Source of the DNA: Bacilli bacterium
Lineage (GTDB): Bacteria; Bacillota_I; Bacilli_A; RF39; UBA660
DNA length: 64,000 bases
Assembly (NCBI GenBank): GCA_028693275.1
Contig: JAQUVS010000003.1
Span: forward strand, 6,046 to 70,045
Direction: 5' to 3'
The translations under genes and the position numbers were made by a program. Under the pieces are notes generated by a model. It saw only the letters and a program-made list of their open reading frames with translations. It did not search any database and was not told where the DNA came from. This document shows, in pieces, positions 33,448 through 52,218 of this stretch (the stretch's first letter is position 1; every line of letters starts with the position of its first letter).

Positions 33448-34404
33448 TTAATATTTTATAAAATATAATACCGATACATTTTCAGGTGTTACAGTTGTTG
33501 ATTTTCCATATATTGGATTGGATAAGCTTGCATCAAATAGCGCATCAATAACACCGTATCCTCCACTTCCAACAGGACTTCTTGATGTTCCGTTATAGAA
33601 TGCCCCGGTTCTTCCGATCCAAGAAATAGTACTTCCTAAACCTCCTGTTATATTAGGTAAGCCCGCTTCTTCAAGTGTTCCGGCAACAGTTGCTCCTTTT
33701 AAAAATTTATTTACATAATTTGGTAGATTAAATGTCGTTGTTCCGTCTCCTGAACCATATTTTGTTCCTATAATATCAAATAAATTTTTATATGTTGTTC
33801 TAGATATTTCTCTACCGTCGCAAAGGATATATCCTGAAGGAACAGTTGGAGCAGCACTAGCAAAAATAGTTCCTATTGGAGTTGAGTCACTTTTTGCGGA
33901 TAACTCATTTACCTTTTGCTGTAATTCTATAACTAGATTAGTTAATTCTTGATTATTATATTCTGTTATAGTTGCTTCACTACCAAGATATATTGCACTT
34001 GTTCCTAATGGTATATTACAATTTTCTCCACTAACAGTTGTTACTTCTTTGTCACTATAGTTTTTATATGCAGTATACTTACCATTATTTATACATACTG
34101 CTACATTTCCTAATCTATCTACAAGCATAGAACCATCTTCTATTTTTCCTTTGTATTCTAATCTTTCACCATCTGGTGTTGTTAAATTTCCATTTACTAA
34201 ATCAAATCTTTGACTAGTATCTACTTCTTTTTCTGTATAATACCAACTAAGGACATCAATTATTCCATATGCACTTTTTTCTACTGATTTTAAATTAGCT
34301 TTAACTATATAATTGGTTACCATAGGTATAGATATTGTTGAAATAATTGTTACAATTAAAATAACTGCAAGTAATTCTATTAATGTAAATCCCTTTTTAT
34401 TCAT
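33448..34404 (-). CDS. Type IV prepilin-like protein fused to C-terminal phage tail-collar (MdpB-like) domain, copy B
   Basis: MNKKG|FTLIELLAVILIV; tail-collar signature GTIFASAAPTVPSGYILCDGREISRTTYKNLFDIIGTKYGSGDGTTTFNLPNYVNKFLKG; C-terminal TVTPENVSVLYFIKY. Confidence 0.65.
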   Translation of the reverse strand: MNKKGFTLIELLAVILIVTIISTISIPMVTNYIVKANLKSVEKSAYGIIDVLSWYYTEKEVDTSQRFDLVNGNLTTPDGERLEYKGKIEDGSMLVDRLGNVAVCINNGKYTAYKNYSDKEVTTVSGENCNIPLGTSAIYLGSEATITEYNNQELTNLVIELQQKVNELSAKSDSTPIGTIFASAAPTVPSGYILCDGREISRTTYKNLFDIIGTKYGSGDGTTTFNLPNYVNKFLKGATVAGTLEEAGLPNITGGLGSTISWIGRTGAFYNGTSRSPVGSGGYGVIDALFDASLSNPIYGKSTTVTPENVSVLYFIKY

Positions 34405-34412
34405 AAATCCTC

Positions 34413-35639
34413 CTAAAGATATTTGTAAAGGAAATATTTTTTCTTTCCTTTTCTTACTACAATGTATTTATTATCTATTGTTAAATTTTTATCTACTATT
34501 TTGTCTAAGTCCATTATTTTATTACCATTGATAGTAATTGTACCAGCTGTAATAAATTCTCTAGCTTCTCTTTTACTTGTTGCTATATTGTTATTTACTA
34601 GGAAGTCAACAATGTTTATATCCTCAGATATATTAGAGATATTTTCATTTTTGAAAACTTCTTCTATCTCTTCTATTGTTAACTCATTAATATTTCCATT
34701 AAATAAGATATTTGTTAATCTTAGGGCTTTTTGATATTCTAGGTCACCATGGATATCTGTTATTATCTCTTTTGCAAGAATTTTTTGGGCATCTCTATAT
34801 TCAGGATGTTCTTTATGTTTTAATTCTATTTCATCTATTTGTTCTTTTGTTAAAAATGTTAATTTTTTTAAATAAGAAATTATCATAGAATCTTCTAAGT
34901 TTATTAGATATTGATATAACTCGTAGCTTGATGTTTTATTTTTATCTAACCATAATGCGTTTCCTTCAGTTTTTCCAAATTTAACACCGTTTGAATCTGT
35001 TACTAGAGGCATTACCATCCCGTATGCTTCTTTTCCTAGTTTCTTTCTTATTAATTCTATTCCAGAAGTTATGTTTCCCCATTGGTCTGAACCTGCTACT
35101 TGTAGTGTACAATTTCTATTTTCGTATAAGTACATAAAATCTAAGGCTTGTAAAATCATATAAGAAAATTCAGCATAAGTTATTCCTGTTTCTAATCTTG
35201 ATTTAACTTTATCTTTTGCTAACATATAGTTGATATTAAAGTATTTTCCATAATCTCTTAAAAAATCTATAACATTAATATCTTTAGTCCAATCCCAATT
35301 ATTCACTACTTCAAAGCCAAAAATTCTTTCAGCTTGTTCTTTTAATCCTTTAAAATTCTTGTCTACTTCTTCTTTTGAAATCATTGGTCTTTCAGATGTA
35401 GGTTTTGGATCTCCAATTAATCCTGTTGCTCCACCTACAAGTAATATTGGATGATGATTTCCTTTAGCCAATCTTTTTGATATTAAAAAAGAAGAATAAT
35501 GTCCAATATGCATTGAATCTGCTGTTGGATCTGTTCCTATATAAAAAGTTAGTCCTCCATTGTTGATTTTTTCAATTAATGATTCATCACTTATATCTTG
35601 AACTAAACCTCTCCATTTTAAATCTTCAAATAAATTCAT
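34413..35639 (-). CDS. tyrS: Tyrosyl-tRNA synthetase
   Basis: HIGH (MHIGHYSS), KFGKT (KMSKS equivalent), C-terminal S4-like domain. Confidence 0.95.
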   Translation of the reverse strand: MNLFEDLKWRGLVQDISDESLIEKINNGGLTFYIGTDPTADSMHIGHYSSFLISKRLAKGNHHPILLVGGATGLIGDPKPTSERPMISKEEVDKNFKGLKEQAERIFGFEVVNNWDWTKDINVIDFLRDYGKYFNINYMLAKDKVKSRLETGITYAEFSYMILQALDFMYLYENRNCTLQVAGSDQWGNITSGIELIRKKLGKEAYGMVMPLVTDSNGVKFGKTEGNALWLDKNKTSSYELYQYLINLEDSMIISYLKKLTFLTKEQIDEIELKHKEHPEYRDAQKILAKEIITDIHGDLEYQKALRLTNILFNGNINELTIEEIEEVFKNENISNISEDINIVDFLVNNNIATSKREAREFITAGTITINGNKIMDLDKIVDKNLTIDNKYIVVRKGKKKYFLYKYL

Positions 35640-35651
35640 TTTTACCTCCTT

Positions 35652-35860
35652 ATAATAAAAAAAGACTATTCATCACATAAGGACGAATAATCGCGGTACC
35701 ACCTTAATTCATAGAAATATCCTATGCACTTGATACTATAAAGCGTTACCTTTTAAGCTCCAAAAATGTAATTCACAATTATTCCATGTTTATTTTCACC
35801 TACCATAAACTCTCTATGTATGAATTATAATTACTACTATTTTTCTTCATTGCTAATGAT
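35652..35860 (-). promoter_or_regulatory. T-box riboswitch leader of tyrS (Tyr specifier UAC)
   Basis: minus strand shows AGAGAG box, specifier ...GAAUUACAUU..., T-box AATTAAGGTGGTACCGCG, and terminator ATTATTCGTCC-ttat-GTGATGAATA followed by T7. Confidence 0.8.
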
Positions 35861-36559: not shown

Positions 36560-37498
36560 TTATTCCTCCTCTTTATACATTGAATCTATAAGATCAAATA
36601 AATTGTCTTCTAGTTTTTCATTTTCTGAAGCATCTTTTTCTAAAACTATTTCTTCTTCATCTTCTTCTATATCAAAATCAATATTGTCTTCTTCTATTTC
36701 TTCGTCTTCTTTAATATCTTCTATACTTGGAGTAGTTCTTACTCTTCTGCCAGTATATTTTTCGTGTTTAGCATCCTTATAATCTACATTATATTCTAAA
36801 CCTAAATCTTCAAAGTACTCTTCAGCATCAGCTAAAGTTACTTTTTCTACTGCTGGTGTAGTATCTACTTCGTTCATATCATAAAGAAGATTATCTTCAT
36901 AATTATCTACTTCTTCTACTGGTTCTTCTTTTTTTTCATTTAAATTTGTTAAACCTAAATCGTATGATAAATCTCCAAAAGCTTTTTCTCTTATTGAATC
37001 TAGATCAACATTTTTTCTTGATACATAGCTACTTGTTGGTTTAACACTCTTCTCTAATATTTCATCCTTTTTATAGTTTTTATCTAAAACTCCATAAATT
37101 GGTGAAATAATAGGCGTTGGTTGAAATTTTTTTGTATGTTCTTTTGTAGTAACTGTTTGAGAATATGTTTGTGAATAAGATGAATTACCATAAGGTTTAG
37201 ATGGTCTTTCATAAGTTGTTGTAGTAACTTCTTCTTTTTCTATAAAATCATCATCTTCAAAATATTTAATTTTAGTTGTTTCTTTTAAAATGTCTTTATC
37301 TGACATTATTTCTATTTCTTCTTTTTCCTCAATAATTGGTTCTTCTATTACTTCTTCAGCAACCGGAGCTACCTTTTTTTCTTCATAAATCTTTCTTGCC
37401 ACTACTTCACGTGGTTGTTTCTTTTCTTTTTGAGGTATTTCCTCTTCTACATATTCTTCTTCAAAGAATGTATTTTTAATTTTATCTAATAATCCCAT
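36560..37498 (-). CDS. Acidic (D/E-rich) low-complexity protein with N-terminal amphipathic MGLLDKIKN motif
   Basis: 312-aa ORF, more than 30% D+E; N-terminus nearly identical to the FtsY N-terminus. Confidence 0.45.
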   Translation of the reverse strand: MGLLDKIKNTFFEEEYVEEEIPQKEKKQPREVVARKIYEEKKVAPVAEEVIEEPIIEEKEEIEIMSDKDILKETTKIKYFEDDDFIEKEEVTTTTYERPSKPYGNSSYSQTYSQTVTTKEHTKKFQPTPIISPIYGVLDKNYKKDEILEKSVKPTSSYVSRKNVDLDSIREKAFGDLSYDLGLTNLNEKKEEPVEEVDNYEDNLLYDMNEVDTTPAVEKVTLADAEEYFEDLGLEYNVDYKDAKHEKYTGRRVRTTPSIEDIKEDEEIEEDNIDFDIEEDEEEIVLEKDASENEKLEDNLFDLIDSMYKEEE

Positions 37499-37510
37499 AA
37501 GAACACCATC

Positions 37511-38176
37511 CTACTCCGTTTCTTCTATTTCTATACTATTTTCATCAGGTAATTCACCTGAAGTATCTTCATAAGTACCATATTGTTCCACATAATCAAG
37601 AAAATTTCCTGTTTCTCTTTTTGATGTAAAAATATCATATACTTCCTCATTATAATTAAGGTTATTTGAACCAATTAATGAACCTATTATTAATTCATTA
37701 TATTTTATACTATTTAATATAATTGCTGAGTTTAATACTATATTATTAATGTCTTCATATTCTACATATGCTTCTATCTTTGCAAAATTGTACATAAATT
37801 CAATAAAATATTTATTGTAAACTTTATTTATTTCTAAATATCCTTTTTTGTTACCTATCTTAATTTCTTTAGAATAGAAACCTTTTTCATTTGTGCTATA
37901 AGTATTATCAACTTTATTATAGTATGAAATTATATCTACATATAAATATATTTTACTTTTATTGTAATATAAAATTGAATTTCTATCTGTTTTTGACTTT
38001 AAACTTATACCTTTTGGTAAATAATATTTATAGCCCTCTAATGACATGTTATTCATTTTTATTTTTTCATTTAATACTTTATTAGTTATTTCATCAATAC
38101 TTAAATTATCTGTTCTTACTATTTGACATCCTGTTATAAAAAAAACAGCAAAGAGTAATACCATTATTTTCTTCAT
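37511..38176 (-). CDS. Hypothetical lipoprotein
   Basis: signal peptide with lipobox FFITGC. Confidence 0.5.
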   Translation of the reverse strand: MKKIMVLLFAVFFITGCQIVRTDNLSIDEITNKVLNEKIKMNNMSLEGYKYYLPKGISLKSKTDRNSILYYNKSKIYLYVDIISYYNKVDNTYSTNEKGFYSKEIKIGNKKGYLEINKVYNKYFIEFMYNFAKIEAYVEYEDINNIVLNSAIILNSIKYNELIIGSLIGSNNLNYNEEVYDIFTSKRETGNFLDYVEQYGTYEDTSGELPDENSIEIEETE

Positions 38177-38970: not shown

Positions 38971-40266
38971 ATGAAGTTTATAACTGATATTGATATAGAA
39001 AAATATGAAGATTTTGTTTCAAGTAACAAAGAAAAATCACATTTCTTACAAAGTAGTTTTTGGGGAAATTTTAGTCAAAAAGAGAAAAGAATGATACCTC
39101 ACTATGTGGGTATTACTGATGATAATGATAAATTATTAGCTAGTGCACTATTACTTGAGAAGAAGTTACCTCTTGGTTTTAGTTATTTTTATTCTCCTAG
39201 GGGATATGTAATGGATTTTAATGATGATAAATTACTTAGTTTTTTTACTAATAATATTAAGACATTTGTTAAAAATAAAAAAGGGATATTTATTAAAATT
39301 GATCCCGATTTAATAATAAATAAATGGGATAAAGATGATAATCATATTGATTTAGATAATGATTATAAGAAAATTTTTGATAATTTGATTTTTTTAGGAT
39401 ACAAACATAAAGGATTTACTAAAAACTTTGAAACTAATCAACCTAGATATACTTTTAGAATAGATTTTAGTAATAAAACGGCAGAAGAAATTTTAGATAA
39501 TTTTTCTAAGACTACTAAACAAAGAATTAAAAAAGCAAAAGACTTAAATGTAAATGTCTTTATAGGTGATGAAAGTAATATTCATGATTTTTATAAGTTA
39601 ATGGAAATTACAGAAAACAGAAAAGATTTTGTTTCCCATAACGAAGAATATTACAAAGTATTATATGATATTTTGAAGAAAGAAGATAAATGTAATATTT
39701 TTTTGGGTGAGGTTAATATAAAAGAAATTATAGATAAGTATTTATTGGAAGTTAAGGATATAGATTTAGAACTAGAAGATTTAAGTAAGGAACTTAATTT
39801 AAGTAAAACAAAAAATACTAGAAAAAAAGAAATTGAAAAAAGAAAAGAAAAACTATTAACAGATATTAGTAATTATAAAAATTTATCAACAGAATATGGG
39901 GATAGAATTATTACTAATGCTCACTTTATAGTTGAATATGGGGATAAAGCATGGGTTTTATATGCTGGTAACCATAATATTTTAACTGAAGTTTGTGGAA
40001 ATTATTTAACATATAGTAATCATATTGAATACTATAAGAATAAAGGTATTAAGATATATGATCAATTTGGAACAATTGGGGATTTAAATAATAAAGAATT
40101 ATTTGGACTTCATGATTTTAAGAAAAAATTTGGTGGAGATTATATAGAATTTATTGGAGAATTTGATTTAATAACTAATAAGTTTATGTATTTTGTTTTT
40201 GTTAACTTAATTCCTTTTTATAGAAATATGGTTAAGAAGATAGCTAAAAGGAGGAAAATAAAATGA
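38971..40266 (+). CDS. FemAB-family peptidoglycan interpeptide-bridge aminoacyltransferase, paralog 1
   Basis: FemABX N-terminal pattern (FLQSSFWGNF...YSPRG), central coiled-coil insertion, C-terminal GNAT-like half. Confidence 0.75.
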   Translation: MKFITDIDIEKYEDFVSSNKEKSHFLQSSFWGNFSQKEKRMIPHYVGITDDNDKLLASALLLEKKLPLGFSYFYSPRGYVMDFNDDKLLSFFTNNIKTFVKNKKGIFIKIDPDLIINKWDKDDNHIDLDNDYKKIFDNLIFLGYKHKGFTKNFETNQPRYTFRIDFSNKTAEEILDNFSKTTKQRIKKAKDLNVNVFIGDESNIHDFYKLMEITENRKDFVSHNEEYYKVLYDILKKEDKCNIFLGEVNIKEIIDKYLLEVKDIDLELEDLSKELNLSKTKNTRKKEIEKRKEKLLTDISNYKNLSTEYGDRIITNAHFIVEYGDKAWVLYAGNHNILTEVCGNYLTYSNHIEYYKNKGIKIYDQFGTIGDLNNKELFGLHDFKKKFGGDYIEFIGEFDLITNKFMYFVFVNLIPFYRNMVKKIAKRRKIK

Positions 40267-41594
40267 AATTAATAGTACTTAACGAAGAAGAATTTAATCT
40301 TTTCGCTAGTAAACATCCTCAAGCATCTTTTTATCAAACTACTGATTGGGGTCACTTGAAGAAAACAAATGGATGGGATATGCACCTTGTTGGTTTTAAA
40401 GATGATAACAATTCCATAGTAGCTGCAACAATGCTTCTTTTTAAAACTACTCCAATTAAGATGAATATGATTTATTCTCCTAGAGGTTTTTTAATTGATT
40501 TTGATAATTTGGAATTATTGAAAGAGTTTACTAAAGAAATTGTTAATTATGCTAAGAAAAATAAAGGAATATTTATAAAATTAGATCCTTATATTATGTA
40601 CAAAGAAAGAGATATTGATGGTAATATTGTAAATGATGGAGTTAATAACGAAAAGGCTTTCAAAAACTTAATTAATTGTAAATATAAGCATTTTGGTTTT
40701 AACTTAATGCAGGATGCTCTTCAACCTAGATTTATTTTTGTTACTAAGACAAAGAATAGAACTATTGATGAAGTTATGAGTGAGATGGATTCTAAGACTA
40801 GACAAATTATTAGAAAAAATGAGAGATTATGCATTAAAACAAGAGAAATTGGTTATGATGAACTTGATAAATTCAAAGATATAATGCAACATACTGGAGA
40901 TAGAAGAGATTTTATTGATAGACCTTTAAAGTATTATCAAAATATGTATAGTAATCTTTCTAAGTCTGGAATTATTAAAATACTTTTAGCTGAGTTAGAT
41001 ACTGTTTCTTTGATTGAAAGTCTTAATAAAGAAATTGATGAATTAAAAAAAGATTACGATGACAGAAAATATAAATATGATAACGGTATTAATAAGATGA
41101 ATATAGATAAATTTAATTTAAAACAGAAGGAAGTAACAACAAATATTGAAAGAGTTAATAAGAAACTCGATGAAGTTTTAACTTTACAAAAAGAAAATGG
41201 AGAGATAATTACTCTTGGAGGAATATTATTTTTAATCCATGGTGGTGAAGTTTTATCTTTAGTTGGTGGTTCATATAAAAAGTTTATGGAATATCAATCT
41301 GCTTATACTATTCACTGGGCTGGTGTAAAAATGGCCATTGAAGGTAATTATGATAGATATAATTTCTACGGTATAACAGGTGACTTTAATCCTTCAAATC
41401 CTTTACTTGGTCTTTATTTATTTAAGAAAAGTTTTGGTGGAGTAGTTGTAGAATTAATTGGAGAGTTTGACCTTATAGTTAATAAACCCTTATATATTGG
41501 GTATAAAATAGCATTCGGATTATACCATTTTCTAAAAAATGGTTATTCAAGACTTATAAAGGTTGTTAAAATTGTTTTTTCAAAGCAAAAATAA
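40263..41594 (+). CDS. FemAB-family aminoacyltransferase, paralog 2
   Basis: FYQTTDWGHLK...YSPRGF; coiled-coil arm; 4-nt overlap with paralog 1. Confidence 0.75.
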   Translation: MKLIVLNEEEFNLFASKHPQASFYQTTDWGHLKKTNGWDMHLVGFKDDNNSIVAATMLLFKTTPIKMNMIYSPRGFLIDFDNLELLKEFTKEIVNYAKKNKGIFIKLDPYIMYKERDIDGNIVNDGVNNEKAFKNLINCKYKHFGFNLMQDALQPRFIFVTKTKNRTIDEVMSEMDSKTRQIIRKNERLCIKTREIGYDELDKFKDIMQHTGDRRDFIDRPLKYYQNMYSNLSKSGIIKILLAELDTVSLIESLNKEIDELKKDYDDRKYKYDNGINKMNIDKFNLKQKEVTTNIERVNKKLDEVLTLQKENGEIITLGGILFLIHGGEVLSLVGGSYKKFMEYQSAYTIHWAGVKMAIEGNYDRYNFYGITGDFNPSNPLLGLYLFKKSFGGVVVELIGEFDLIVNKPLYIGYKIAFGLYHFLKNGYSRLIKVVKIVFSKQK

Positions 41595-41595
41595 G

Positions 41596-41620
41596 CATAT
41601 AAATGCTTATTTTTTTATTT
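41596..41620. terminator. Bidirectional terminator between femAB-2 and the sigma gene
   Basis: hairpin AAGCATATAAATGCTT followed by T7. Confidence 0.5.
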
Positions 41621-42375
41621 TATAATCTTTTTGTATTTATTTTGTCTGATTTTATAAACAAAACAACAAATAAAATCAAACTTATTACTGAAAGAATTAA
41701 TAAAAGGATATTTAAATCAAAGATTGGATTTGAACTACCTAATTTTGCCGTTTCTAGTACGAAACTATCATTAAGTGGGACACTCCTATCTGTAGGTATT
41801 TCTAGTGCCTTACTTCTATATATTAAACTTACTGTAGATATTATAAAAGTAGAGAATAATCCAGTTAGTACTGTTCTTAATTTTTTGATTGATGTGTTAT
41901 ATTTCCACATAACTGTTCCTATTGGAATATTTAACATATCTGAAATTTCTTTATGACTCAATCCACATATTATTTTTAATGTTACTATCTGTCTTTGTTG
42001 TTCATTTAATGAGTTTATTAAATGATTACAAGAATCCATATCAACTAAAGTTTCTATAGACTTATCAAGAACAGGTATTTCACTTATGTCGTCGATTGAT
42101 ATTTCTTTTTTTTCTTTTCTTAATAACTGTAATGTTTCATTCTTAACAACTTTGTACAACCAACTAAGTTCATTTTTTGTTGGATATTTATTTGAATTTA
42201 GTTTATATAAGTTAAGCATTGTATTTTGGATTGCATCCTTGCTTATTTCATCATCTCTACATATTGAAAATGCAACACCATACATTACTCTAAAGTAATT
42301 ATCATATAGTAATTTAAATCCATATGAATCATAATTTTTTAATAATTCAAATATTGTACTTAGTTTTATATTCAT
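41620..42375 (-). CDS. ECF-type sigma-70 factor fused to a C-terminal two-TM membrane anchor
   Basis: region 2 (DAIQNTMLNLYK, WLYKVVKNETLQLLRK) and region 4 (LSHKEISDMLNIPIGTVMWKYNTSIKKLR), then two predicted TM helices; ATG at 42375 lies 1 nt after the upstream stop. Confidence 0.7.
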   Translation of the reverse strand: MNIKLSTIFELLKNYDSYGFKLLYDNYFRVMYGVAFSICRDDEISKDAIQNTMLNLYKLNSNKYPTKNELSWLYKVVKNETLQLLRKEKKEISIDDISEIPVLDKSIETLVDMDSCNHLINSLNEQQRQIVTLKIICGLSHKEISDMLNIPIGTVMWKYNTSIKKLRTVLTGLFSTFIISTVSLIYRSKALEIPTDRSVPLNDSFVLETAKLGSSNPIFDLNILLLILSVISLILFVVLFIKSDKINTKRL

Positions 42376-42376
42376 G

Positions 42377-43615
42377 TTATTCACCACTTATTCCATTACT
42401 TACATGTACTTCTATATTTTCATTTATTGTAACAAATTCATTATATTTAGAAGTCCAAACGATTGTTCCCTTTTCTTTTTCTGAATTAATATACTTGACC
42501 GTATAAGTAAATTTTAAACCTTTTTGATTATACTCATAGAAGACTTTTGCTAATTCACTTTCACTTGTTCCAATCAAACTATTAAAATATGGTTTACCTA
42601 AAGAATAAATTAATTCAACCTTATTATCTGTTTCTAATTTTCTAGTACCAGCTTTAACAGATTGAGAAATTAATTGACCATAGCCAACGTTCATATTATA
42701 TAGTAATCTAATTTTAATATCAAGTTTGCTATTTAATGTTGAGGCGTTTTCGCTTGTTACACCATAGAAATTAGGGATTGTAATACCCTTACCTCCTGAT
42801 ACATTTAATTTTAATTTAGTTTCTATTGTTATTAAATCACCCATTTTTACTGATTGACTTGTTACTCTTCCGATTTCATATTTGTCATTTATAACATCAG
42901 TATAATTACAAATTATATTATTTTCAGTACACCACTTAGTAACATCCTCTTTTGATTTATCTATTAAGTTTGGTACTTCAATTTTTTTGTCATATTCAAC
43001 ATTTCCCTTAGAAATTACAATTTCTAGACTGTCACTTCTTGTAAAATTATTTTCATCCGTTGTAGCACTGGAAAAGGTATATTTTATTAACTTACCTTTT
43101 TCTATTTTTATAGAATTTTCTTCTGTGATTACTGTACATGTTAACTTATTCTTATCTATCCATTCTTTTATCTGTCTACCAGTCATGTTACTTAAATCTG
43201 GTACTTTTATTTTTTCTGATGGATCATTTCCTTTACTTATTATTATTTTAAAAGTAGAATTTTTATTTATTTTTTTTCCTGGTTTTATACTTTGTTTGAT
43301 AACAAAGTCTTCTAATATTTTATCATCATATTTTTCTTCTTCTATTAATTGTATTTTATTTTTATCTGCCCATTTTTTTGCTATAGAAGATAATTGATTA
43401 TTAAAGTCTGGTACTTCTACTTTAGATATATTGATATAAATAAATAATGATACAAGAGCTAATAATAAACCTAATGATACTTGGATTATTATTTTTTTCT
43501 TCTTTCTATTAGAATACTTTTGATCCTTTTCTATATCATATTCTACTTCTTTTATTCCTGTTTTTCTTTTGATATCTTTTTCTTCTTCTGTGAAGTTATC
43601 TAAAAAACTATTCAT
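42377..43615 (-). CDS. Kinase-less membrane protein with 4-5 extracellular PASTA repeats
   Basis: 40-aa cytoplasmic N-terminus, one TM, repeated units beginning VPD/VPN/IPN and ending ISKG/VSGG; start ATG overlaps the ABC ATPase stop (ATGAATAG). Confidence 0.7.
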   Translation of the reverse strand: MNSFLDNFTEEEKDIKRKTGIKEVEYDIEKDQKYSNRKKKKIIIQVSLGLLLALVSLFIYINISKVEVPDFNNQLSSIAKKWADKNKIQLIEEEKYDDKILEDFVIKQSIKPGKKINKNSTFKIIISKGNDPSEKIKVPDLSNMTGRQIKEWIDKNKLTCTVITEENSIKIEKGKLIKYTFSSATTDENNFTRSDSLEIVISKGNVEYDKKIEVPNLIDKSKEDVTKWCTENNIICNYTDVINDKYEIGRVTSQSVKMGDLITIETKLKLNVSGGKGITIPNFYGVTSENASTLNSKLDIKIRLLYNMNVGYGQLISQSVKAGTRKLETDNKVELIYSLGKPYFNSLIGTSESELAKVFYEYNQKGLKFTYTVKYINSEKEKGTIVWTSKYNEFVTINENIEVHVSNGISGE

Positions 43616-44285
43616 CTTTCTTTAGTATTCCTTTCTCAAGTATTAAAGTAACATCAGATTTTTTAGCAATTTCTTTGGAATGAGTAACCATTATTACACA
43701 TTTTTTATGCTCATGGGCTAAACTTGCAAATAGTTTAACTATTTCTTCTGACATTTCTTGATCTAAATTACCTGTTGGTTCATCTGCTAAAATCAGATTA
43801 ACATCTGTAGATAGTGCTCTTGCTATTGCAACTCTTTGTTGTTCACCACCTGATAATTTATTTATAGTTCTATTTCCTTTTATACTGTCTATTCCTACAT
43901 ATTTTAGGAGATTTTTTGCAACTGTTTCTTTATTTTCTGGTAATTTATTATTTGTAATACTCATTGCTACTAGAATGTTTTCTATTCCTGTCATATATGG
44001 AATTAAGTTGTAACTTTGAAAAATAATTCCTACTTTATTTCTACGATAATTATCTAATCCTATTTGTCTTATATTTATATTTTCATAATTTATTTGTCCA
44101 CTTTTTTGTTCTTCTAGGGCTGATATTAAAGATAGAAAGGTCGTTTTCCCACTTCCACTTTCACCTAAAATTGTATAAAATTTACCCTTTTCAAAATCGT
44201 ATGTTATATCCTTTAAAATGTGCCTTATTATATCTCCATCTTGATAAAAATAACTTAAATTTGAAACGCTTAATATATTTTCCAT
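43608..44285 (-). CDS. ABC transporter ATP-binding protein (MacB/FtsE-like)
   Basis: Walker A GESGSGKTT, signature LSGGEQQRVAIARAL, Walker B ILADEPTGNLD; RBS AAGGAGGT. Confidence 0.9.
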   Translation of the reverse strand: MENILSVSNLSYFYQDGDIIRHILKDITYDFEKGKFYTILGESGSGKTTFLSLISALEEQKSGQINYENINIRQIGLDNYRRNKVGIIFQSYNLIPYMTGIENILVAMSITNNKLPENKETVAKNLLKYVGIDSIKGNRTINKLSGGEQQRVAIARALSTDVNLILADEPTGNLDQEMSEEIVKLFASLAHEHKKCVIMVTHSKEIAKKSDVTLILEKGILKKDE

Positions 44286-44295
44286 ATTTACCTCC

Positions 44296-45723
44296 TTACA
44301 TTAATATCTTTCTTGGATTTATTTTTAAAGTGTAATATATTGGTAATAAAGTAGATAGAGTTACACTACCTAAGCAAACTATATATATTATAAATATGGT
44401 ATTTATATCTAAACTAACACTATATTTACTCATTATTTCTTTTTTATCTATATTATTTTGATATCCAAATTCATCATATGAAATATTATCTTCTTTAGAA
44501 CTAGAAGATATTTCATTATCTAACATCTTATTTGAAATGTTTTTTGCTAATAGATTACCACTGAATATAGATATTGATACTGCTAGTAAAGATATTATTA
44601 TTGTCTCTAAAAGAACTTGGATAGCTATATTCATTTTATATTCTCCTAAAGCTAAATATATACCTATTTCATGTTTTCTTTCTCTAAAAAATAATACTGT
44701 TATTAATCCTATTATTATTATTGAAGCTATTATTGATGCATACATTATAAAGTTAGATAAGCTTTGCATATTTTGCATTGGTCCTATAGTTTTATTATAT
44801 AATTCAGAGTTATCAGTAAATTTATATCCTGTTAACAATTTTTTTATGTTTTCATTTTTAAAGTCATCTAATTCATTTATATTTTTTAAATTAAATGTTG
44901 CTTTTATATCGAAACTATCATAATCTTCTATATTTAATTCATCATAAGAAGTTATTATTTTATTATGTATAAATTCCATAGTTTTATTAGGCATATAAAT
45001 GTAATCTACTAATGGGTTATACTCTTCTACTATTTTCCCATCTTCGTCTTTAATTAGGTTTGTTTTAGCTTCAAAGATTCCAATTACTTTGTATTCTTCC
45101 TTTATAGATTTTAAAATTTTAAAATCTACTCCTGAATAATCTTCTATATTTTTACCTAAAGTTATTGTTGAACCTACTTTTAGATTATTCTTTTTTGCTA
45201 ACTCTTTTGAAATGATTACTACATTATTTCCTTTTTCTATATCATCTTTTGTATATGTTTTTCCATCTATTATGTTAAATTTATCTAAAGTTATCTCTCT
45301 TATTATAGTACTATTTGATCCAATAATAGAAAAACTATTTTCCTGTCCTATAATAGATATTTTATCCTCAAGACTTGATGTTCTAAATAAAATGTTTTCA
45401 TTTACTAGTTTTAATGTAGTACTTTGTAAATTATAATTGTAAGAATAATAATAATCTTTTATATATGTTGATTTTCCTATTTGATTGATTTGCTTTTCTG
45501 TTAATTTTTCTGGTTCTTTATCAGTTATTTTTTCATAATCTAATTCTATTTTTATTTCTACTGGCATTTTTTCTGTGATAGATTTCTCCGTGTTTGCTAA
45601 AGCTTTTTTAACAGATATAGATCCTGCTATGACATTACTAATTAATAATATTGCCAAAAATAGTATTAATGATTTCCCTTTCCTTCTTATTATACTTGTG
45701 TAACTTCTTCTAAAAAAATTCAT
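44296..45723 (-). CDS. FtsX/MacB-type ABC permease with large extracytoplasmic domain
   Basis: N-terminal TM, approx 290-aa extracellular domain, three C-terminal TM helices; RBS GGGAG. Confidence 0.75.
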   Translation of the reverse strand: MNFFRRSYTSIIRRKGKSLILFLAILLISNVIAGSISVKKALANTEKSITEKMPVEIKIELDYEKITDKEPEKLTEKQINQIGKSTYIKDYYYSYNYNLQSTTLKLVNENILFRTSSLEDKISIIGQENSFSIIGSNSTIIREITLDKFNIIDGKTYTKDDIEKGNNVVIISKELAKKNNLKVGSTITLGKNIEDYSGVDFKILKSIKEEYKVIGIFEAKTNLIKDEDGKIVEEYNPLVDYIYMPNKTMEFIHNKIITSYDELNIEDYDSFDIKATFNLKNINELDDFKNENIKKLLTGYKFTDNSELYNKTIGPMQNMQSLSNFIMYASIIASIIIIGLITVLFFRERKHEIGIYLALGEYKMNIAIQVLLETIIISLLAVSISIFSGNLLAKNISNKMLDNEISSSSKEDNISYDEFGYQNNIDKKEIMSKYSVSLDINTIFIIYIVCLGSVTLSTLLPIYYTLKINPRKILM

Positions 45724-45838
45724 ATAAATCTCCCTTCTTTTTTTTAGATTTATCCCCCTATATATTTAGATGCAAAAAGGTGGATATTTTATTGGTTTTT
45801 AGATAAAAAAAAGAACAAATTTATTTTGTCCTTATATT

Positions 45839-47092
45839 TTATCTTCTAATTAAGTTTTTTATCTTCTTTATTAATTTATATATATAATAAAAGTTAGATA
45901 TCTTTAATTCAAATTGACCTATATATTCTATAACATTACCAGTGAATCCTTTTTTAAATTCATAAATACCATAGTATTTATTTTCTTTATTGAAGTCACC
46001 TGTTATACCATAAAAATTACAGTATTTAAAATTTTCTTGGTATGCATCTTTTATATGTTTATCATACATTGCATACTTTGGAGTGAAGCTCTTATATTCT
46101 TCTAATACTCCACTTGATAACGTTAAGTATTCATTCCCTGATTTTATTGATAATAGGCATCCTATATCTTTACCATTAGGATTCTCTTCCTTAAATTTTT
46201 TAGCTTTATCTAATTCTAATTGATATTTGTCTAAAAGCTTATCTGAAGTTTCTTTTTGATTTAGTAGCTTACTACCTACATTATCTTTATTTAGTTTTTC
46301 AATAATAATTTTATTATTTTCTAGTTCATTATTATATAATTCAAGAGTACTATTGTAGTAGATCGTTGGATCTAAATATGCTATATATATAGTCATGAGA
46401 TTACTCATGTTTTTATACATATTTTGATAATATTTTAGACTTCTATGAAAGAAGTCTTTTCTTTTAGATGTTAATTCAAATATTTCTGTTAGAGTTGGTA
46501 AATCTTCTATTTTACCTTTTCTTACTTGAAGACCTTTTTTATAACAAGAGTCTATATTTTTTCTTGTACTTTTTGAAAATTTTTGTTTTTTTGTTTCATA
46601 GTCTTCATCTAATTCTAATCTATATGCCCATCTTGCTTGAAGTGAATCTAAATAAATATTGAAACCAAAATGTTTATAATTTAATTTTTTTAGATTAGCT
46701 ATAGTAAAATCATCTTTATCATCATTTATTATTTCACCTTCACTACTTCTAGTTCTATAGATAACATTTGGATCAATAGTTAAGATGAATCCATTATTTT
46801 TCTTTATATATTTCTTTAATTCTTCTGTAAAAAAAGATAATAATTCATAGTTATGATAATCCAAAATCATTCCCCTAGGAGAATAAAAAATACTTTTATT
46901 TAAAATTGTTTTTGTTTCTAATAATAGAGATGTAGCTATTACTTTACCATCTTTTTTTATACCAACAAGATGAGGAATATCATTACTTTCTTTTTTTAAA
47001 TTACCTAGTTCTATTGTTTGCATGAAAGAGGTTTGACTATTATTACTTAAAAATTCATTATATTCATCTTTATTTAAAATCTCAAATTTCAT
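45839..47092 (-). CDS. FemAB-family aminoacyltransferase, paralog 3
   Basis: SFMQTIELGNLK...YSPRG; coiled-coil insertion; followed by short terminator GGACAAA/TTTGTTC + T8. Confidence 0.75.
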   Translation of the reverse strand: MKFEILNKDEYNEFLSNNSQTSFMQTIELGNLKKESNDIPHLVGIKKDGKVIATSLLLETKTILNKSIFYSPRGMILDYHNYELLSFFTEELKKYIKKNNGFILTIDPNVIYRTRSSEGEIINDDKDDFTIANLKKLNYKHFGFNIYLDSLQARWAYRLELDEDYETKKQKFSKSTRKNIDSCYKKGLQVRKGKIEDLPTLTEIFELTSKRKDFFHRSLKYYQNMYKNMSNLMTIYIAYLDPTIYYNSTLELYNNELENNKIIIEKLNKDNVGSKLLNQKETSDKLLDKYQLELDKAKKFKEENPNGKDIGCLLSIKSGNEYLTLSSGVLEEYKSFTPKYAMYDKHIKDAYQENFKYCNFYGITGDFNKENKYYGIYEFKKGFTGNVIEYIGQFELKISNFYYIYKLIKKIKNLIRR

Positions 47093-47096
47093 ATTA

Positions 47097-48737
47097 TTAC
47101 CTCTTTTTTCTTATTATTTTACTTATAAATTTATTAACTAATTCTTTTCCAAATATTCCAACTAGTACTCTATTTTTTAGATTTATTAAAACAAATATTC
47201 CTCCACCAACAATTGTATATAGTAATATTATTGGGATATTTAATAATCTATTAGTTTGATCTAATGGAATAACAAACTTCATTGATAAAAGAACTAAACT
47301 CATTATTATTACTGATACTATGATTTTAATTGTTTTATTAAGTGTGTCTTCATACTCTACTTTGTACTTACTATGTAAGAAGGCTAAACATATAATTACA
47401 CATATAAGGTATCCTAAAATTGTTGCTGTTGTTGCTCCATGATATGCTGGAATTCCTAATTTATGAAATCCATATACTAAAGGGGCATTGAAGATTACTT
47501 TTACTAATAATCCTGTAATTAGTGATATAAAGACAACTTTGTATTCTTTTAATACCTGAGTAATTGTAATTGTTGCTGTAAATAAAGTTGTTGCTAATGC
47601 AGTATAAATATAATAACTGAAAACATCTGTTCCTAATTTACTATATCCATAAAATATATCCCATACTGGTTGAGCTAAGATGCTTAAGCCAACTGTCATT
47701 GGTAATACTAAAAAGATTATTACTTGAATAGTTTGATTTATTTTTTTTCTAACATCAACTATGTCATTTTTAACAAAACTTCTAGTTAAATTTGGTATTA
47801 AACTTACCATTACTCCTGTTGCTATTGAGATAACTATCATAGTTAATTTAGAACCCCAAGTTGAAAATATACTTATTACTGATTCTGCTGTTGTTACCTT
47901 AAAAGATAGGTCATTAACTAATATTTTTACTAACATAACTACATCTACTGATGTATAAAGTGACTTAAATATATCTATCATTATAAAAGGGAAAGCATAT
48001 ATTAAAATTTTTCTTAATATTTGTTTATCAGAAATAAATGGTTCTTCTGTATTTGTGTTATTTTTTTCAAGTAATTCCTTGTGTTTATTGGATTTTCTTA
48101 CAAGGTATAACCAAGAAATGATGGCTCCTATTGTTGCAGAAAAGACTGATATACCTACTGTTGTTTTTAATGATAAGTTAAATACTTTTAATGATAAATA
48201 ACTTCCTAAAACTATAATTATTACTCTTACTAATTGTTCAAGTACTTGGGATACTGATGTTGGAGTAATAAATCTATGTCCTTGTAAGTACCCTCTGTAT
48301 ATACTTAATATTGGTACTATTAATATTGCTGTTGATATTACTCTAATAACAAATGTAATATCTTGGATTGAATTTCCACCTTCTACATTTCCTATTATTA
48401 AAATAGCTAATGGTTTTGCAAAGATCATTAAAATTAAGAAAGAAAATACTCCCATAATTGTTAATGCTTTTTTACCAATACTAAAAGCTCTTTCTTTTGC
48501 ATTATAATATCCTAAAACATTATATTCACTTATTATTTTACTCATTGCTAAAGGTATTCCTGCTGATGATATTCCTAAAAATATTGAATATATCGAATAG
48601 GCATATCCGTATAGTGCTCCACCTTGATTTCCAATTATTGCATAAAATGGAATAACATATATAATTCCTAAAATCTTACTTAATACAATACCCATTGTTG
48701 CTATAAATGCACCTTGGATAAACGAATTTTTTTTCAT
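47097..48737 (-). CDS. MurJ/MviN-family flippase (YtgP/SpoVB-like polysaccharide biosynthesis protein)
   Basis: 546 aa, about 14 TM helices; N-terminus LSKILGIIYVIPFYAIIGNQGGALYGYAY resembles B. subtilis YtgP. Confidence 0.75.
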   Translation of the reverse strand: MKKNSFIQGAFIATMGIVLSKILGIIYVIPFYAIIGNQGGALYGYAYSIYSIFLGISSAGIPLAMSKIISEYNVLGYYNAKERAFSIGKKALTIMGVFSFLILMIFAKPLAILIIGNVEGGNSIQDITFVIRVISTAILIVPILSIYRGYLQGHRFITPTSVSQVLEQLVRVIIIVLGSYLSLKVFNLSLKTTVGISVFSATIGAIISWLYLVRKSNKHKELLEKNNTNTEEPFISDKQILRKILIYAFPFIMIDIFKSLYTSVDVVMLVKILVNDLSFKVTTAESVISIFSTWGSKLTMIVISIATGVMVSLIPNLTRSFVKNDIVDVRKKINQTIQVIIFLVLPMTVGLSILAQPVWDIFYGYSKLGTDVFSYYIYTALATTLFTATITITQVLKEYKVVFISLITGLLVKVIFNAPLVYGFHKLGIPAYHGATTATILGYLICVIICLAFLHSKYKVEYEDTLNKTIKIIVSVIIMSLVLLSMKFVIPLDQTNRLLNIPIILLYTIVGGGIFVLINLKNRVLVGIFGKELVNKFISKIIRKKR

Positions 48738-48800: not shown

Positions 48801-51635
48801 CTATTTAGCCACTATGTTTACTATTCTATTTTTAATTACTATTACTTTTACTATTTCTTTTTCTTCTAAATGTTTTTGTACATTTGAGTCACTTAAAGCT
48901 TTTTCTTTTATTTCTTCTTCAGTATCATTAATTGCACAAATAATAGTTCCTCTTAATTTACCATTTACTTGAACAGCTATTTCTTTTTCTTCATCTATTA
49001 TTTTTTCTTCATCATATGTTGGCCATGCTGATTCACATAAAGGATTTCCTAAATGATTAATTTCATTTAATTCTTCTGTTATATGAGGAGCTATAGGATT
49101 TAATAAAGTAAGTAGTGTTCTATAGTCTTTTTGACTTATTTCTTCTTTATCAGTCATTTCATTAGTTAATATCATTAAAGCAGAAACTGCTGTGTTAAAT
49201 TTCATATTATCTATGTCTTCTGTGACTTTTTTTATTGTTTTATTAATTATCTTTTCTAAAGAAGATGAGTATTCATCTGAGTTATTTAATTTGTCTTGTA
49301 ATTTAATAACTTTATCTAAGAATCTTCTACAACCATTTAGACTTTGTTCGCTCCAAGCAGCTTCTTTTTCATAGTCTCCTATAAACATTTCATAGCATCT
49401 TAGTGCATCTGCTCCTTGTTTTTTTACAACGTCATCGGGATTTATAACATTACCCTTAGACTTAGACATTTTTTCTCCACCTTCACCAAGAATCATTCCG
49501 TGGGCTACTCTTGTCTTAAAAGGTTCTTTGTAAGGAACTAATCCAATGTTATATAGGAATTGATTCCAGAAACGAGCATATAATAAGTGTCTTGTAGCAT
49601 GTTCCATTCCACCATTATACCAATCAAGTTGTCCCCAATAATTCAATGCTTCTTTTGAAACAAATTCTTTATCATTTTTAGGATCCATGTATCTTAACCA
49701 GTACCAAGAAGATCCAGCCCAGTTAGGCATTGTATCTGTTTCTCTTTTAGCTGGTTTTCCGCATTTAGGACATGTTGTATTTACCCAACTTTCTATTTTA
49801 GCAAGTGGACTTTCACCATCATCTGTTGGTTCATACTCAGCTACATCTGGTAATAAAACAGGAAGGTCTTCTTCTTTAACTGGAACCCATCCACATTCAT
49901 CACAACATACTAAAGGTATTGGTTCTCCCCAGAATCTTTGTCTTGTAAATATCCAATCTTGTAATTTATAATTTGTTTTCTTATAACCGATTCCTTCTTT
50001 TTCTAAATACTCTAACATTTTATTTATAGATTCTTTTTTATTTGTTAAACCATTTAAGATACCAGAATTAACCATTTTGCCGTCTCCAGCATAATAATTA
50101 TTTTCTGCTAGTAAATTTCTGAATGTAGTAATATGTAATTCATCTTTTACTTCTTTTTCTATTATTTCTCTTGATACCCATTCAATTTCAAATTTACCTT
50201 TTTCGTCTTCATCAAGATTATTTGTTTCTTTCTTATCAGAAATAAGTTTAAATAATAATCCAATACTTTCTATTTCATAAGCTTTATTCTTATTATAAGC
50301 AAAATAATGATGATTAATTGGACTAATTTCTTTGATAAATCTAATATCTGTGTATCCAGTTTCTTCTTTTATTTCTCTTACAGCTGTTTCTAATGCAGTC
50401 TCATTATCTTTTCTTGTTCCCCCAATAAATAATCTTCCACCTAATTCTTTCCAATTAAGAGTTAAATATTTATTATTTTCTTCGTCATAAATAACTGCTA
50501 CTATACTATTTTTTTGTTCTTCATTTTCTCTTTGTTCACCAGTTATTTGTTCTATAACAGGGATTATTTCTATATTAAATTTACTTGCAAATTCATAGTC
50601 TCTATCATCATGTGCTGGAACAGCCATAATAGCTCCTGTTCCATAGTTCATCATAACATAATCTGAAATATAAATAGGAATTTCTTTATTTGTAATAGGA
50701 TTAATAGCTGTTAATCCATCAATTCTCACACCAGTTTTTTCTTTTGTCATATTTAATCTTTCAAATTCTGTTTTGAAATTTGTTTTTTCTCTATAATCTA
50801 TTATTTCATTCATGTTGTTTATTATTCCACTATATAGGTCTATATATGGATGTTCTGGGGCTATTACCATGAAAGTAACTCCATATAAAGTATCTGGTCT
50901 TGTTGTATATACTTTTAATTTTTCATCTATTTCTTTAATTTTAAAATCTACTTCTGCTCCTGTTGATTTTCCTATCCAATTGATTTGAGCAGTTTTTATT
51001 CTTTCTTGGAAGTCAGTCTCATCTAAACCTGTTATTAAGTCTTCTGCATAGTCTGACATTCTTAGTACCCATTGGTCTTTTTCTTTTTGAACTACAACTG
51101 ATCCACATCTTTCACAAGTTCCTCCGCTAGAATCTTCATTTGATAAACCTGTTTTACAATTAGGGCACCAGTTTATACTTTTTTTAGCTTTATATGCCAT
51201 ATCGTGTTCATAAAATTTAATAAATTGCCATTGAGTCCATTTATAGTATTCTGGATCAGTAGTAGAAAATTCTCTACTCCAATCAAATGAAATACCAAGA
51301 TCTTTTATTTGTCCCTTAAATGTTTTTATGTTTTCAGCTACTGCTTCTTTAGGATGAATATGATTTTTAATAGCATATTGTTCTGCTGGAGCCCCAAAAG
51401 CATCCCATCCCATTGGAAATAATACATTATATCCCATCATTCTTTTCTTTCTTGCCATTGTATCAATTGCTGTATAGCTTCTTACATGACCAACATGTAA
51501 TCCAGATCCAGATGGATATGGAAATTCTACAAGATAAAAATATTTTTCCTTATCACTATTATTTTTTGCAACAAAAGTATTATTATCATCCCAATATTTT
51601 TGCCATTTTTTTTCTATATCATTTATTGTCATCAT
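48801..51635 (-). CDS. leuS: Leucyl-tRNA synthetase carrying an inserted Nudix hydrolase domain
   Basis: HVGH and KMSKS motifs, CP1 editing domain; about 150 extra residues including a perfect Nudix box between ...IPVIEQI and AGDGKMVNSG; terminator hairpin AGTGGCTAAATAGCCACT + T-run at the 3' end. Confidence 0.95.
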   Translation of the reverse strand: MMTINDIEKKWQKYWDDNNTFVAKNNSDKEKYFYLVEFPYPSGSGLHVGHVRSYTAIDTMARKKRMMGYNVLFPMGWDAFGAPAEQYAIKNHIHPKEAVAENIKTFKGQIKDLGISFDWSREFSTTDPEYYKWTQWQFIKFYEHDMAYKAKKSINWCPNCKTGLSNEDSSGGTCERCGSVVVQKEKDQWVLRMSDYAEDLITGLDETDFQERIKTAQINWIGKSTGAEVDFKIKEIDEKLKVYTTRPDTLYGVTFMVIAPEHPYIDLYSGIINNMNEIIDYREKTNFKTEFERLNMTKEKTGVRIDGLTAINPITNKEIPIYISDYVMMNYGTGAIMAVPAHDDRDYEFASKFNIEIIPVIEQITGEQRENEEQKNSIVAVIYDEENNKYLTLNWKELGGRLFIGGTRKDNETALETAVREIKEETGYTDIRFIKEISPINHHYFAYNKNKAYEIESIGLLFKLISDKKETNNLDEDEKGKFEIEWVSREIIEKEVKDELHITTFRNLLAENNYYAGDGKMVNSGILNGLTNKKESINKMLEYLEKEGIGYKKTNYKLQDWIFTRQRFWGEPIPLVCCDECGWVPVKEEDLPVLLPDVAEYEPTDDGESPLAKIESWVNTTCPKCGKPAKRETDTMPNWAGSSWYWLRYMDPKNDKEFVSKEALNYWGQLDWYNGGMEHATRHLLYARFWNQFLYNIGLVPYKEPFKTRVAHGMILGEGGEKMSKSKGNVINPDDVVKKQGADALRCYEMFIGDYEKEAAWSEQSLNGCRRFLDKVIKLQDKLNNSDEYSSSLEKIINKTIKKVTEDIDNMKFNTAVSALMILTNEMTDKEEISQKDYRTLLTLLNPIAPHITEELNEINHLGNPLCESAWPTYDEEKIIDEEKEIAVQVNGKLRGTIICAINDTEEEIKEKALSDSNVQKHLEEKEIVKVIVIKNRIVNIVAK

Positions 51636-52211: not shown

Positions 52212-52218
52212 AAGTTAT

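Follow-up and report, generated by a model that had tools for sequence, protein, structure and literature searches.

The 64,000-nucleotide stretch of Bacilli bacterium DNA analysed here (the window; positions 6,046 to 70,045 of contig JAQUVS010000003.1) encodes, on its minus strand, an extracytoplasmic function (ECF) sigma factor whose polypeptide runs from the DNA-reading region 4 (sigma4) straight into a C-terminal hairpin of two predicted membrane helices. The gene product is a bona fide ECF (group 4) sigma factor and belongs to a large, widespread and mainly clostridial family of such hairpin sigmas. Its gene is the last of a four-gene operon, arranged head to tail behind genes for an FtsX/MacB-type permease and an ATPase of the ATP-binding cassette (ABC) class and for a protein with PASTA repeats, and the operon very probably owes its transcription to the sigma factor that it encodes. 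Coordinates of all features are collected in Table 1.

The sequence-only reading of the window had described the gene as an ECF sigma factor fused in a single polypeptide to two C-terminal transmembrane helices, and the later analyses bear out both parts of this description: the fusion through hydropathy, an AlphaFold2 model and conservation, and the ECF identity through Pfam matches to region 2 (sigma2, residues 23-90) and sigma4 (residues 119-167; E-values of 5e-11 for Sigma70_r4_2 and 1e-8 for Sigma70_r4), a score of 66.9 bits with the NCBIfam sigma70-ECF model TIGR02937 (cut-off 42.9) and the closest solved structures in the PDB, which are the ECF sigmas SigH, SigW, SigK and SigE. The alignments to these structures all stop at or before query residue 171; Pfam gave no match past residue 167, and hence none to an anti-sigma domain, and no match to Sigma70_r3 or r1, while no NCBIfam equivalog model was reached by the protein and no HxxxCxxC motif was seen in its sequence. 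In the family alignment, W72, V76, K78, N79 and E80 are invariant in region 2, as are P151, G153, T154 and W157 in region 4. The protein has sigma2 and sigma4 without regions 1.1 and 3, joined by a short flexible linker (residues 91-111 are disordered in the AlphaFold2 model), and its operon has a conserved promoter of fixed spacing with an AAC-containing -35 element, all of them ECF features; an adjacent gene for a cognate anti-sigma factor, which is typical of ECFs and not universal among them, is lacking. The open reading frame ends with TAA at 41622-41620; alternative starts in frame are the GTG codons at 42387 and 42384, the second of which is used by a public gene call. We consider the ATG at 42375-42373 the likely start because the N-termini of relatives align as MRIKLNTIF or MGIKLDTIF and a Shine-Dalgarno-like GGTGA lies six nucleotides upstream of it.

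The AlphaFold2 model, built from a 32-sequence alignment with a mean predicted local distance difference test score (pLDDT) of 70.9, has an uninterrupted helix from residue 152 to 191, in which the sigma4 recognition helix runs into the first transmembrane segment (TM1); residues 192-216 are disordered and a second helix (TM2) spans residues 217-244. Neither a linker nor an anti-sigma domain lies between sigma4 and TM1. Both helices had been called strongly hydrophobic from the sequence alone; the two quoted strings are indeed present, and the wording suits TM2 (Kyte-Doolittle 3.46), whereas TM1, with a 19-residue mean of 1.68, is merely marginal. The same asymmetry is found across the family, where the median hydrophobicity is 1.77 for TM1 and 2.95 for TM2, TM1 is the less hydrophobic of the two in 91 of 101 relatives, and the fraction of G, S, T, N, Q, P and C residues is 0.30 in TM1 against 0.19 in TM2. 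Conserved features of TM1 are an S/T/G-S/A/N pair near its inner face and a GxG near its outer face. Of 115 relatives, 102 have exactly two hydrophobic segments after sigma4, in register, as do 158 of the 181 sequences of an enlarged set, which is more than chance would give; in the family, TM1 starts between four residues before and six residues after the end of the sigma4 KKLR motif.

The charges around these helices are distributed unevenly. On average, 2.4 lysines or arginines stand in the 12 residues ahead of TM1; the loop, 18-82 residues long in the family and about 25-35 in the window protein, contains about five acidic residues and has a lysine-plus-arginine density of 0.06; and the tail after TM2, 7-27 residues long, reaches a density of 0.32. 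Because this is the positive-inside signature, we predict that the sigma domains and the C-terminal tail face the cytoplasm and that the loop lies outside. On the same charge distribution, we rejected a tail-anchored protein in which TM2 alone would span the membrane and the loop would be cytoplasmic. No extracytoplasmic sensor domain was found in the hairpin, the only exposed part being the variable loop of 18-82 residues.

A word-indexed search returned about 115 full-length relatives of approximately 250 residues, and an exhaustive profile search gave 244 clusters (at 50% identity) at E <= 1e-30, the generic ECF matches at E <= 1e-10 numbering 15,093. Scanning one genome per species, we found 316 hairpin-sigma loci, nearly all in Clostridia/Bacillota; cultured carriers include Acetobacterium carbinolicum, Clostridium boliviensis, Lacrimispora amygdalina, Wukongibacter, Pseudoflavonifractor gallinarum and Hathewaya proteolytica. 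One may ask whether the architecture is an artefact, that is, a chance read-through in an AT-rich genome (25.8% GC), a frameshift fusion or a mis-called reading frame: AT-rich DNA readily codes for stretches rich in isoleucine, leucine and phenylalanine, and TM1 is only marginally hydrophobic. However, the uninterrupted architecture of about 250 residues is kept down to 33-40% identity across genomes of widely differing GC, the charge bias and the register of the helices are conserved with it, and an identical sigma gene is present in the independent assembly Logan SRR22315505. The architecture is not due to chance, and conservation effectively refutes the artefact, to which we attach hardly any credence. 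Two genomes contain paralogous hairpin-sigma loci, L005 and L010 in the same Anaerovoracaceae metagenome-assembled genome and L062 and L070 in the same Clostridia one, L070 having an additional weak sigma match 5 kb downstream. The literature that we found on membrane-tethered, membrane-bound or fused sigma factors contained no experimental work on this family.

Comparison of the regions upstream of relatives yielded a family promoter motif, CCAAYAAA-N15-CATCY, usually CCAACAAAA...GCATCTAA. It has a single match in the 64-kb window, where 0.04 would be expected by chance, and this match ends 45 nucleotides upstream of the permease ATG; there was, consequently, no sign of further regulon members within the window. 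The window and the related loci together have 78 copies, placed upstream of the sigma gene or of its operon, and despite the search allowing spacers of 10-15 nucleotides, all 78 have the identical length of 28 nucleotides, as an autoregulatory ECF promoter would. Since the operon carries the conserved ECF promoter of the hairpin-sigma family itself, it is very probably autoregulated. Matches to sigma-70-type promoters in the operon were fewer than in shuffled sequences (28 vs. 38.6) and are uninformative.

The promoter motif also accounts for what looked like a feature of the protein. The family alignment ends in a conserved C-terminal peptide, F-F-K-x-S-D-K-I-P-T-K, and 22 of the first 80 loci have two copies of the promoter motif, the second lying within the last codons of the sigma gene and typically beginning 29 nucleotides before its stop. 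The embedded -35 box consists of the Pro-Thr-Lys codons CCA-ACA-AAA and the -10 box of the Arg-Ile-stop codons CGC-ATC-TAA. The synonymous sites are fixed: CCA is used in 39 of 40 tails and ACA in all 40, against background frequencies in the same genes of 0.33 and 0.40. Because the peptide coincides with the -35 box and its synonymous sites are fixed, the apparent protein motif is largely a DNA signal driving the next gene, and we largely reject, on the same grounds, the idea of SDKIPTK as a docking or degron motif acting at the protein level. SDK(I) survives in the clade of the window, where the embedded promoter has decayed, and may have a residual role in the protein; the window sigma ends in KSDKINTKRL, encoded by AATACAAAA, a remnant of the embedded promoter without a -10 box. 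The case calls for caution in motif-based annotation, given that a peptide motif may in reality be a DNA signal.

In most family members, the sigma gene is followed by a gene (+1) whose product is always exported, has no cytoplasmic domain and is of varied kind: a DUF3221 (YobA-like) lipoprotein at 28 of 65 loci, a member of an SLH-domain family at 12 of the 65, and at others a small transmembrane peptide, a trypsin-like protease or a DUF4358 protein. The window clade has no such downstream gene. The +1 genes of twelve relatives (e.g., L017, L028 and L045) encode a conserved domain of unknown function, FDFxxNDxGFTPIF...GNNHSDDLFMGY, sometimes followed by SLH repeats, and that of L024 (8834-9847) encodes a secreted trypsin-like protease, which could conceivably act as a site-1 protease.

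We infer that regulation by sequestration or proteolysis, as the sequence-only reading had supposed, is the most reasonable explanation for the hairpin; its fuller version, membrane sequestration followed by a two-step proteolytic release, has in our judgment an even chance of being right. In the full-length protein, sigma4 would be pinned to the bilayer and, as there is no linker, its binding to -35 DNA and to the beta-flap would be hindered, such that a productive holoenzyme on DNA would be prevented or would barely form. An envelope signal would then bring about cleavage within the exposed loop (site 1), the loop and TM2 having shielded TM1 until that moment. TM1 would subsequently be cleaved by an intramembrane site-2 protease of the RasP/RseP type, releasing a soluble sigma factor of about 170 residues that would transcribe its own operon and yield more of the ABC-PASTA module. 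The site-2 proteases RseP, RasP and S2P require substrates in type II orientation with helix-destabilising residues, and TM1 has such residues and is predicted to have that orientation. There are precedents for the proteolytic release of membrane-anchored sigma factors in IutY (by Prc and RseP) and pro-sigma-K (by SpoIVFB), and predicted ones in the groups ECF48, ECF52 and ECF53 (PMC8999054, PMC10202637).

Several points weigh against proteolytic release. No gene for a site-2 protease came up in the window, where no search for one was made, and the loop shows little conservation among family members, leaving no common site-1 motif evident. A cut by S2P would leave a hydrophobic C-terminal stub on sigma4, which could turn the freed sigma into a Clp substrate. 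The transmembrane predictions rest on hydropathy, charge bias and the helices of a model with the mean pLDDT given above, and the recognition of the conserved promoter by the hairpin sigma is deduced from their co-occurrence only. Finally, the regulon is strictly local and its products are membrane-bound or exported, which fits equally well a sigma factor acting at the membrane.

The last point leads to the main alternative, which we consider unlikely yet worth spelling out, namely that the sigma factor works while anchored, as a membrane-resident subunit of RNA polymerase acting in cis on the promoters of its own locus, these being drawn to the membrane by the coupled transcription, translation and insertion of the encoded proteins. 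It would then resemble ToxR, TcpP and CadC; any proteolysis would switch it off, and the exported +1 protein would be protective in the manner of TcpH and ToxS or, in a variant, either that protein or the ABC-PASTA module would tune the stability of the sigma. The purely local regulon (its own promoter and, in relatives, the one in the 3' end of the gene) fits such a factor, its targets (permease, PASTA protein, the sigma itself, DUF3221 lipoproteins, SLH proteins and a secreted protease) are all membrane or exported proteins, and the position of the +1 gene mirrors tcpPH and toxRS (PMC10202637). On the other hand, zero to few residues separate the sigma4 recognition helix from TM1, the two forming one rigid helix in the AlphaFold2 model, and the -35 DNA and the beta-flap would be forced against the bilayer. 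To our knowledge, the known membrane-bound DNA-binding regulators have linkers, and small local regulons are, in any case, usual for most ECFs.

The position of the hairpin at the extreme C-terminus, within the last 80 residues and followed by a tail of just 7-27, permits a further explanation, to which we give a small chance: activity could be set by the competition of membrane insertion with core binding. With TM2 still in the ribosome tunnel at termination, insertion would have to be posttranslational, through YidC or the signal recognition particle, and once insertion capacity or membrane integrity falls, the uninserted sigma would accumulate and turn the operon on. A marginally hydrophobic TM1 throughout the family would suit this well, and there are parallels in sigma32, which is regulated by membrane targeting, and in MifM, which monitors YidC activity. 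However, uninserted hydrophobic tails usually aggregate or are degraded, and the varied exported +1 proteins would be left unexplained.

The neighbours of the sigma gene suggested at first sight a dedicated sensor. The PASTA protein begins with 42 cytoplasmic residues, which include the conserved motif M(N/S)SFLDNFTEEE, and continues with a single transmembrane helix (approximately residues 43-62) and at least four extracellular PASTA repeats; among NCBIfam models it matches solely the extracellular part of PknB/Stk1-type kinases; its start overlaps the end of the ATPase gene by eight nucleotides and its stop (42379-42377) lies, as had been noted, one nucleotide from the sigma ATG. From this spacing, the sequence-only reading had proposed a stoichiometric coupling of sensor and sigma factor. 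In this form, the proposal finds no support: the permease-ATPase-PASTA-sigma arrangement is limited to the nearest relatives, at 55-71% identity (the genomes L001-L003 and the metagenome contigs L081, L082 and L098), most hairpin-sigma loci have neither an ABC nor a PASTA neighbour, and the PASTA protein is also found paired with an unrelated sigma factor. The tight spacing (8-nucleotide overlap, 1-nucleotide gap) reflects operon packing. One of the loci with the full four-gene operon, L003 (CAYURI010000002.1), comes from a metagenome-assembled genome labelled as uncultured Muribaculaceae (Bacteroidota); its gene content is Firmicutes-like and the bin assignment may be wrong.

More informative are sister cassettes, whose permease, ATPase and PASTA proteins are 47-50% identical to those of the window and which lack the hairpin sigma. 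In L084, L085, L092, L094 and L099, two other genes stand directly upstream of the permease gene: one for a 192-residue ECF sigma with Sigma70_r2 and r4_2 domains, to which the window sigma showed no similarity, and one, overlapping the end of the former, for a 196-residue single-pass membrane protein that is, by position and shape, a putative anti-sigma factor. A C-terminal remnant of the latter, 24-34 residues long, is seen in L087 (4801-4898), L088, L091 and L093; synteny of the permease gene is kept in L001-L003, L081, L082 and L083-L094. As the PASTA motif, MSSFL(D/E)xF(T/N)EE, is present alongside the hairpin sigma and persists in cassettes with the other sigma/anti-sigma pair, the PASTA protein belongs to the transporter module and not to the sigma factor. 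The hairpin sigma, in turn, fills the regulatory slot held elsewhere by a sigma and its putative anti-sigma factor and, because the sister cassettes have that pair in its place, the hairpin probably substitutes for a separate anti-sigma factor, the swap being the strongest, if indirect, evidence for such a role. Pfam detected no protein with an anti-sigma domain in the window operon. The PASTA protein itself was rejected as the cognate anti-sigma factor: no anti-sigma domain is present in its 42-residue N-terminus, most loci of the family lack the protein, and its N-terminal motif is kept beside another sigma/anti-sigma pair.

The same observations bear on the idea that, in the window clade, the ABC transporter and the PASTA protein are the sensor and the hairpin an intramembrane-sensing module, like BceS with BceAB, in which helix-helix contacts would report the state of the transporter or of PASTA and control the release or activity of the sigma. 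Co-operonic, tightly packed genes, a synteny conserved in L001-L003, L081, L082 and L098 and a loop too short for a ligand-binding domain all agree with it, as does the role of PASTA domains as binders of cell-wall ligands in the PknB, PrkC and StkP families. But with most family members lacking an ABC or PASTA neighbour it cannot be the basic mechanism of the family, and the same cassette and PASTA motif also work beside another sigma/anti-sigma pair or where no such pair is adjacent. We find it doubtful as an explanation of its own; a dependence of this kind on the ABC-PASTA module could, in the window clade, be added to either the release or the anchored model.

The function of the module can be approached through its parts. 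The permease has four transmembrane helices, judged from hydrophobic segments, and a large extracytoplasmic domain; the best NCBIfam matches of the ATPase, all below the cut-offs, are to the lactococcin-972-type exporter, DevA, LolD and FtsE ATPases. In characterised proteins, muropeptides or lipid II are the ligands of PASTA repeats, and the operon is flanked by three FemAB-family paralogues (29-35% mutual identity) and a MurJ/Polysacc_synt-type membrane protein, an environment not conserved in L001-L003. Given these PASTA ligands, the nearest families of the ATPase and the FemAB and MurJ-like neighbours, the output of the module is probably related to the cell wall (lipid II or muropeptide), as a protective or remodelling device. 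Between the sigma gene and the convergent FemAB gene lies an A/T-flanked hairpin that is a possible bidirectional intrinsic terminator, which would end both transcripts; a scan for consensus terminators gave no hit and did not call this weak hairpin, its stem having fewer than three G-C pairs.

Elsewhere in the window, the editing domain of a 947-residue leucyl-tRNA synthetase (48801-51644, minus strand) is followed at once by an inserted NUDIX domain (PF00293, residues 380-495, E 4e-10), and the gene of this synthetase is preceded by a T-box leader (52031-52212); a second T-box leader (35676-35859, minus strand) lies upstream of the tyrosyl-tRNA synthetase gene (34413-35639). The class B RNase P RNA at 17104-17448 (minus strand) is consistent with a Bacillota host (25.8% GC). 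In a 318-residue protein (33448-34404, minus strand), a prepilin-type methylation motif (N_methyl) at the N-terminus occurs together with a phage tail collar domain, and three proteins encoded on the minus strand have no Pfam match: an acidic one of 312 residues (36560-37498), a lipoprotein-like one of 221 (37511-38176) and one of 449 (54656-56005).

Table 1. Features of the hairpin-sigma operon and its surroundings in the window, and of related loci (last rows, numbered within the named locus).
Feature	Position	Strand	Evidence or remark
ECF sigma factor with C-terminal two-helix membrane hairpin	41620-42375	-	251 residues
Sigma region 2 (residues 23-90), with family-invariant WLYxVVKNE	42106-42309	-	Pfam PF04542 Sigma70_r2, E 1.6e-7
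Sigma region 4 (residues 119-167), recognition helix PIGTVMWKYNTSIKKLR at its end	41875-42021	-	Pfam PF08281 Sigma70_r4_2, PF04545
TM1 (residues 168-191), marginally hydrophobic, many small/polar residues, contiguous with sigma4 helix	41803-41874	-	Kyte-Doolittle, AlphaFold2
Predicted extracytoplasmic loop (residues 192-216), variable, acidic	41728-41802	-	pLDDT below 50
TM2 (residues 217-244), strongly hydrophobic	41644-41727	-	Kyte-Doolittle 3.46; AlphaFold2 helix 217-244
Basic cytoplasmic tail KINTKRL (predicted), degenerate remnant of family tail SDKIPTK	41623-41643	-	Alignment
ABC permease, FtsX/MacB type, first operon gene	44296-45723	-	Pfam FtsX E 5.8e-11, MacB_PCD E 2.7e-9
ABC transporter ATPase	43608-44285	-	Pfam ABC_tran E 8e-32
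Kinase-less PASTA protein	42377-43615	-	Pfam PASTA in four stretches, E 2e-32
Operon ECF-type promoter CCAATAAAATATCCACCTTTTTGCATCT: -35-like CCAATAAA, 15-nucleotide spacer, -10-like (G)CATCT(AA)	45768-45795	-	
A/T-flanked hairpin between convergent FemAB and sigma genes, possible terminator	41582-41619		RNAfold 12-bp stem, -11.5 kcal/mol, then U-run
FemAB paralogues and MurJ-like protein	38971-40266, 40263-41594 (two of the four genes)	+	
FemAB paralogues and MurJ-like protein	45839-47092, 47097-48737 (the other two)	-	
Sister cassettes	L085 3534-8025; L092 160-4650; L094 3742-8233		
Embedded promoters, examples (from L004-L059)	L009 8724-8751; L004 8715-8742		

A membrane-anchored sigma factor is not without precedent: membrane-anchored ECFs are a recognised category that includes IutY (ECF243), the groups ECF48, ECF52 and ECF53, and ECF263 (PMC8999054, PMC7826278). 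Of the features of this hybrid class, the hairpin sigma has the transmembrane segments and lacks the anti-sigma and sensor domains, though it plausibly acts in a like manner. IutY of Pseudomonas putida, an ECF243 sigma/anti-sigma hybrid, likewise joins, in one polypeptide, an ECF sigma at the N-terminus to a C-terminal part that spans the membrane; it is activated by Prc and the site-2 protease RseP, and truncated IutY is constitutively active (PMC8999054, PMC10202637). However, IutY has a FecR-type anti-sigma domain, a single transmembrane helix and a large periplasmic domain reading a TonB-dependent receptor, whereas the window sigma has no anti-sigma domain, two transmembrane helices, a short loop and a Gram-positive host. 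The actinobacterial ECF48, ECF52 and ECF53 (e.g., SCO4117) and ECF263 share with it a transmembrane C-terminal extension and the absence of a separate anti-sigma factor, and proteolytic regulation has been predicted for these groups (PMC8999054, PMC7826278). Compared by their descriptions, the extensions of ECF48, ECF52 and ECF53 reach 400 residues, with a zinc-finger anti-sigma domain, extracytoplasmic domains and one or two transmembrane helices, and ECF263 has five or seven helices, in contrast to a bare two-helix hairpin of about 80 residues starting at the last turn of sigma4. The hairpin family may already be catalogued among the groups of the ECF Hub: a candidate is ECF262, whose entry for Ruminococcus albus mentions a regulatory extension and leaves its nature unstated, and the named R. 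albus member that would link the two (SFB89493.1) was not found in a second homology search.

In Bacillus subtilis, pro-sigma-K is similarly a membrane-associated sigma and the substrate of an S2P-family metalloprotease, SpoIVFB (PMC10202637, PMC6242693), but it is a group 3 sporulation sigma with a short N-terminal pro-sequence and no C-terminal hairpin. TcpP-TcpH and ToxR-ToxS of Vibrio cholerae, which are subject to proteolysis by Tsp and RseP (PMC10202637), resemble the hairpin-sigma relatives in pairing a membrane-anchored regulator with a cotranscribed downstream exported partner (the +1 protein); TcpP and ToxR differ in being winged-helix activators that act while anchored and are inactivated by proteolysis, with a single transmembrane helix and a periplasmic domain. 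Should the hairpin sigma, too, act while anchored, it would be without a forerunner, no other sigma factor having been shown to start transcription from within the membrane. With SigW-RsiW and SigV-RsiV, the hairpin sigma would share the envelope-stress output, the autoregulated operon and, if our proposal is right, activation by regulated intramembrane proteolysis; these are, however, two-protein systems with a cytoplasmic anti-sigma domain binding sigma2 and sigma4, whereas the hairpin would inhibit by tethering alone. The natural swap of the hairpin sigma for a classical pair at the same ABC-PASTA cassette is a ready-made comparison of the two designs and, as gut and anaerobic Clostridia, cultured species among them, commonly carry such sigmas, the question is directly testable.

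What sets the family apart from the characterised members is that anti-sigma and sensor domains are absent and that sigma4 ends in nothing but a two-helix hairpin; the family would be a minimal one-component version, a sigma factor held off merely by a hairpin welded to its DNA-reading helix. The closest likeness in layout comes from eukaryotic SREBP, in which the transcription domain, N-terminal and cytosolic, is followed by a hairpin of TM1, a luminal loop of about 30 residues and TM2, and whose release involves a cut of the loop by the site-1 protease and cleavage of TM1 by S2P, for which helix-breaking residues in TM1 are required. In both, an N-terminal factor domain is followed by TM1, a short exoplasmic loop and TM2, with both ends cytosolic, for the sigma by prediction. 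Where the hairpin sigmas have a tail of 7-27 residues, SREBP ends in a large regulatory domain binding SCAP, and there is no homology, the analogy being mechanistic only. If proteolytic release is correct, the hairpin sigma would show the logic of the SREBP hairpin at work in bacteria, and synthetic biology in Firmicutes would gain a stress switch that is both very compact and portable.

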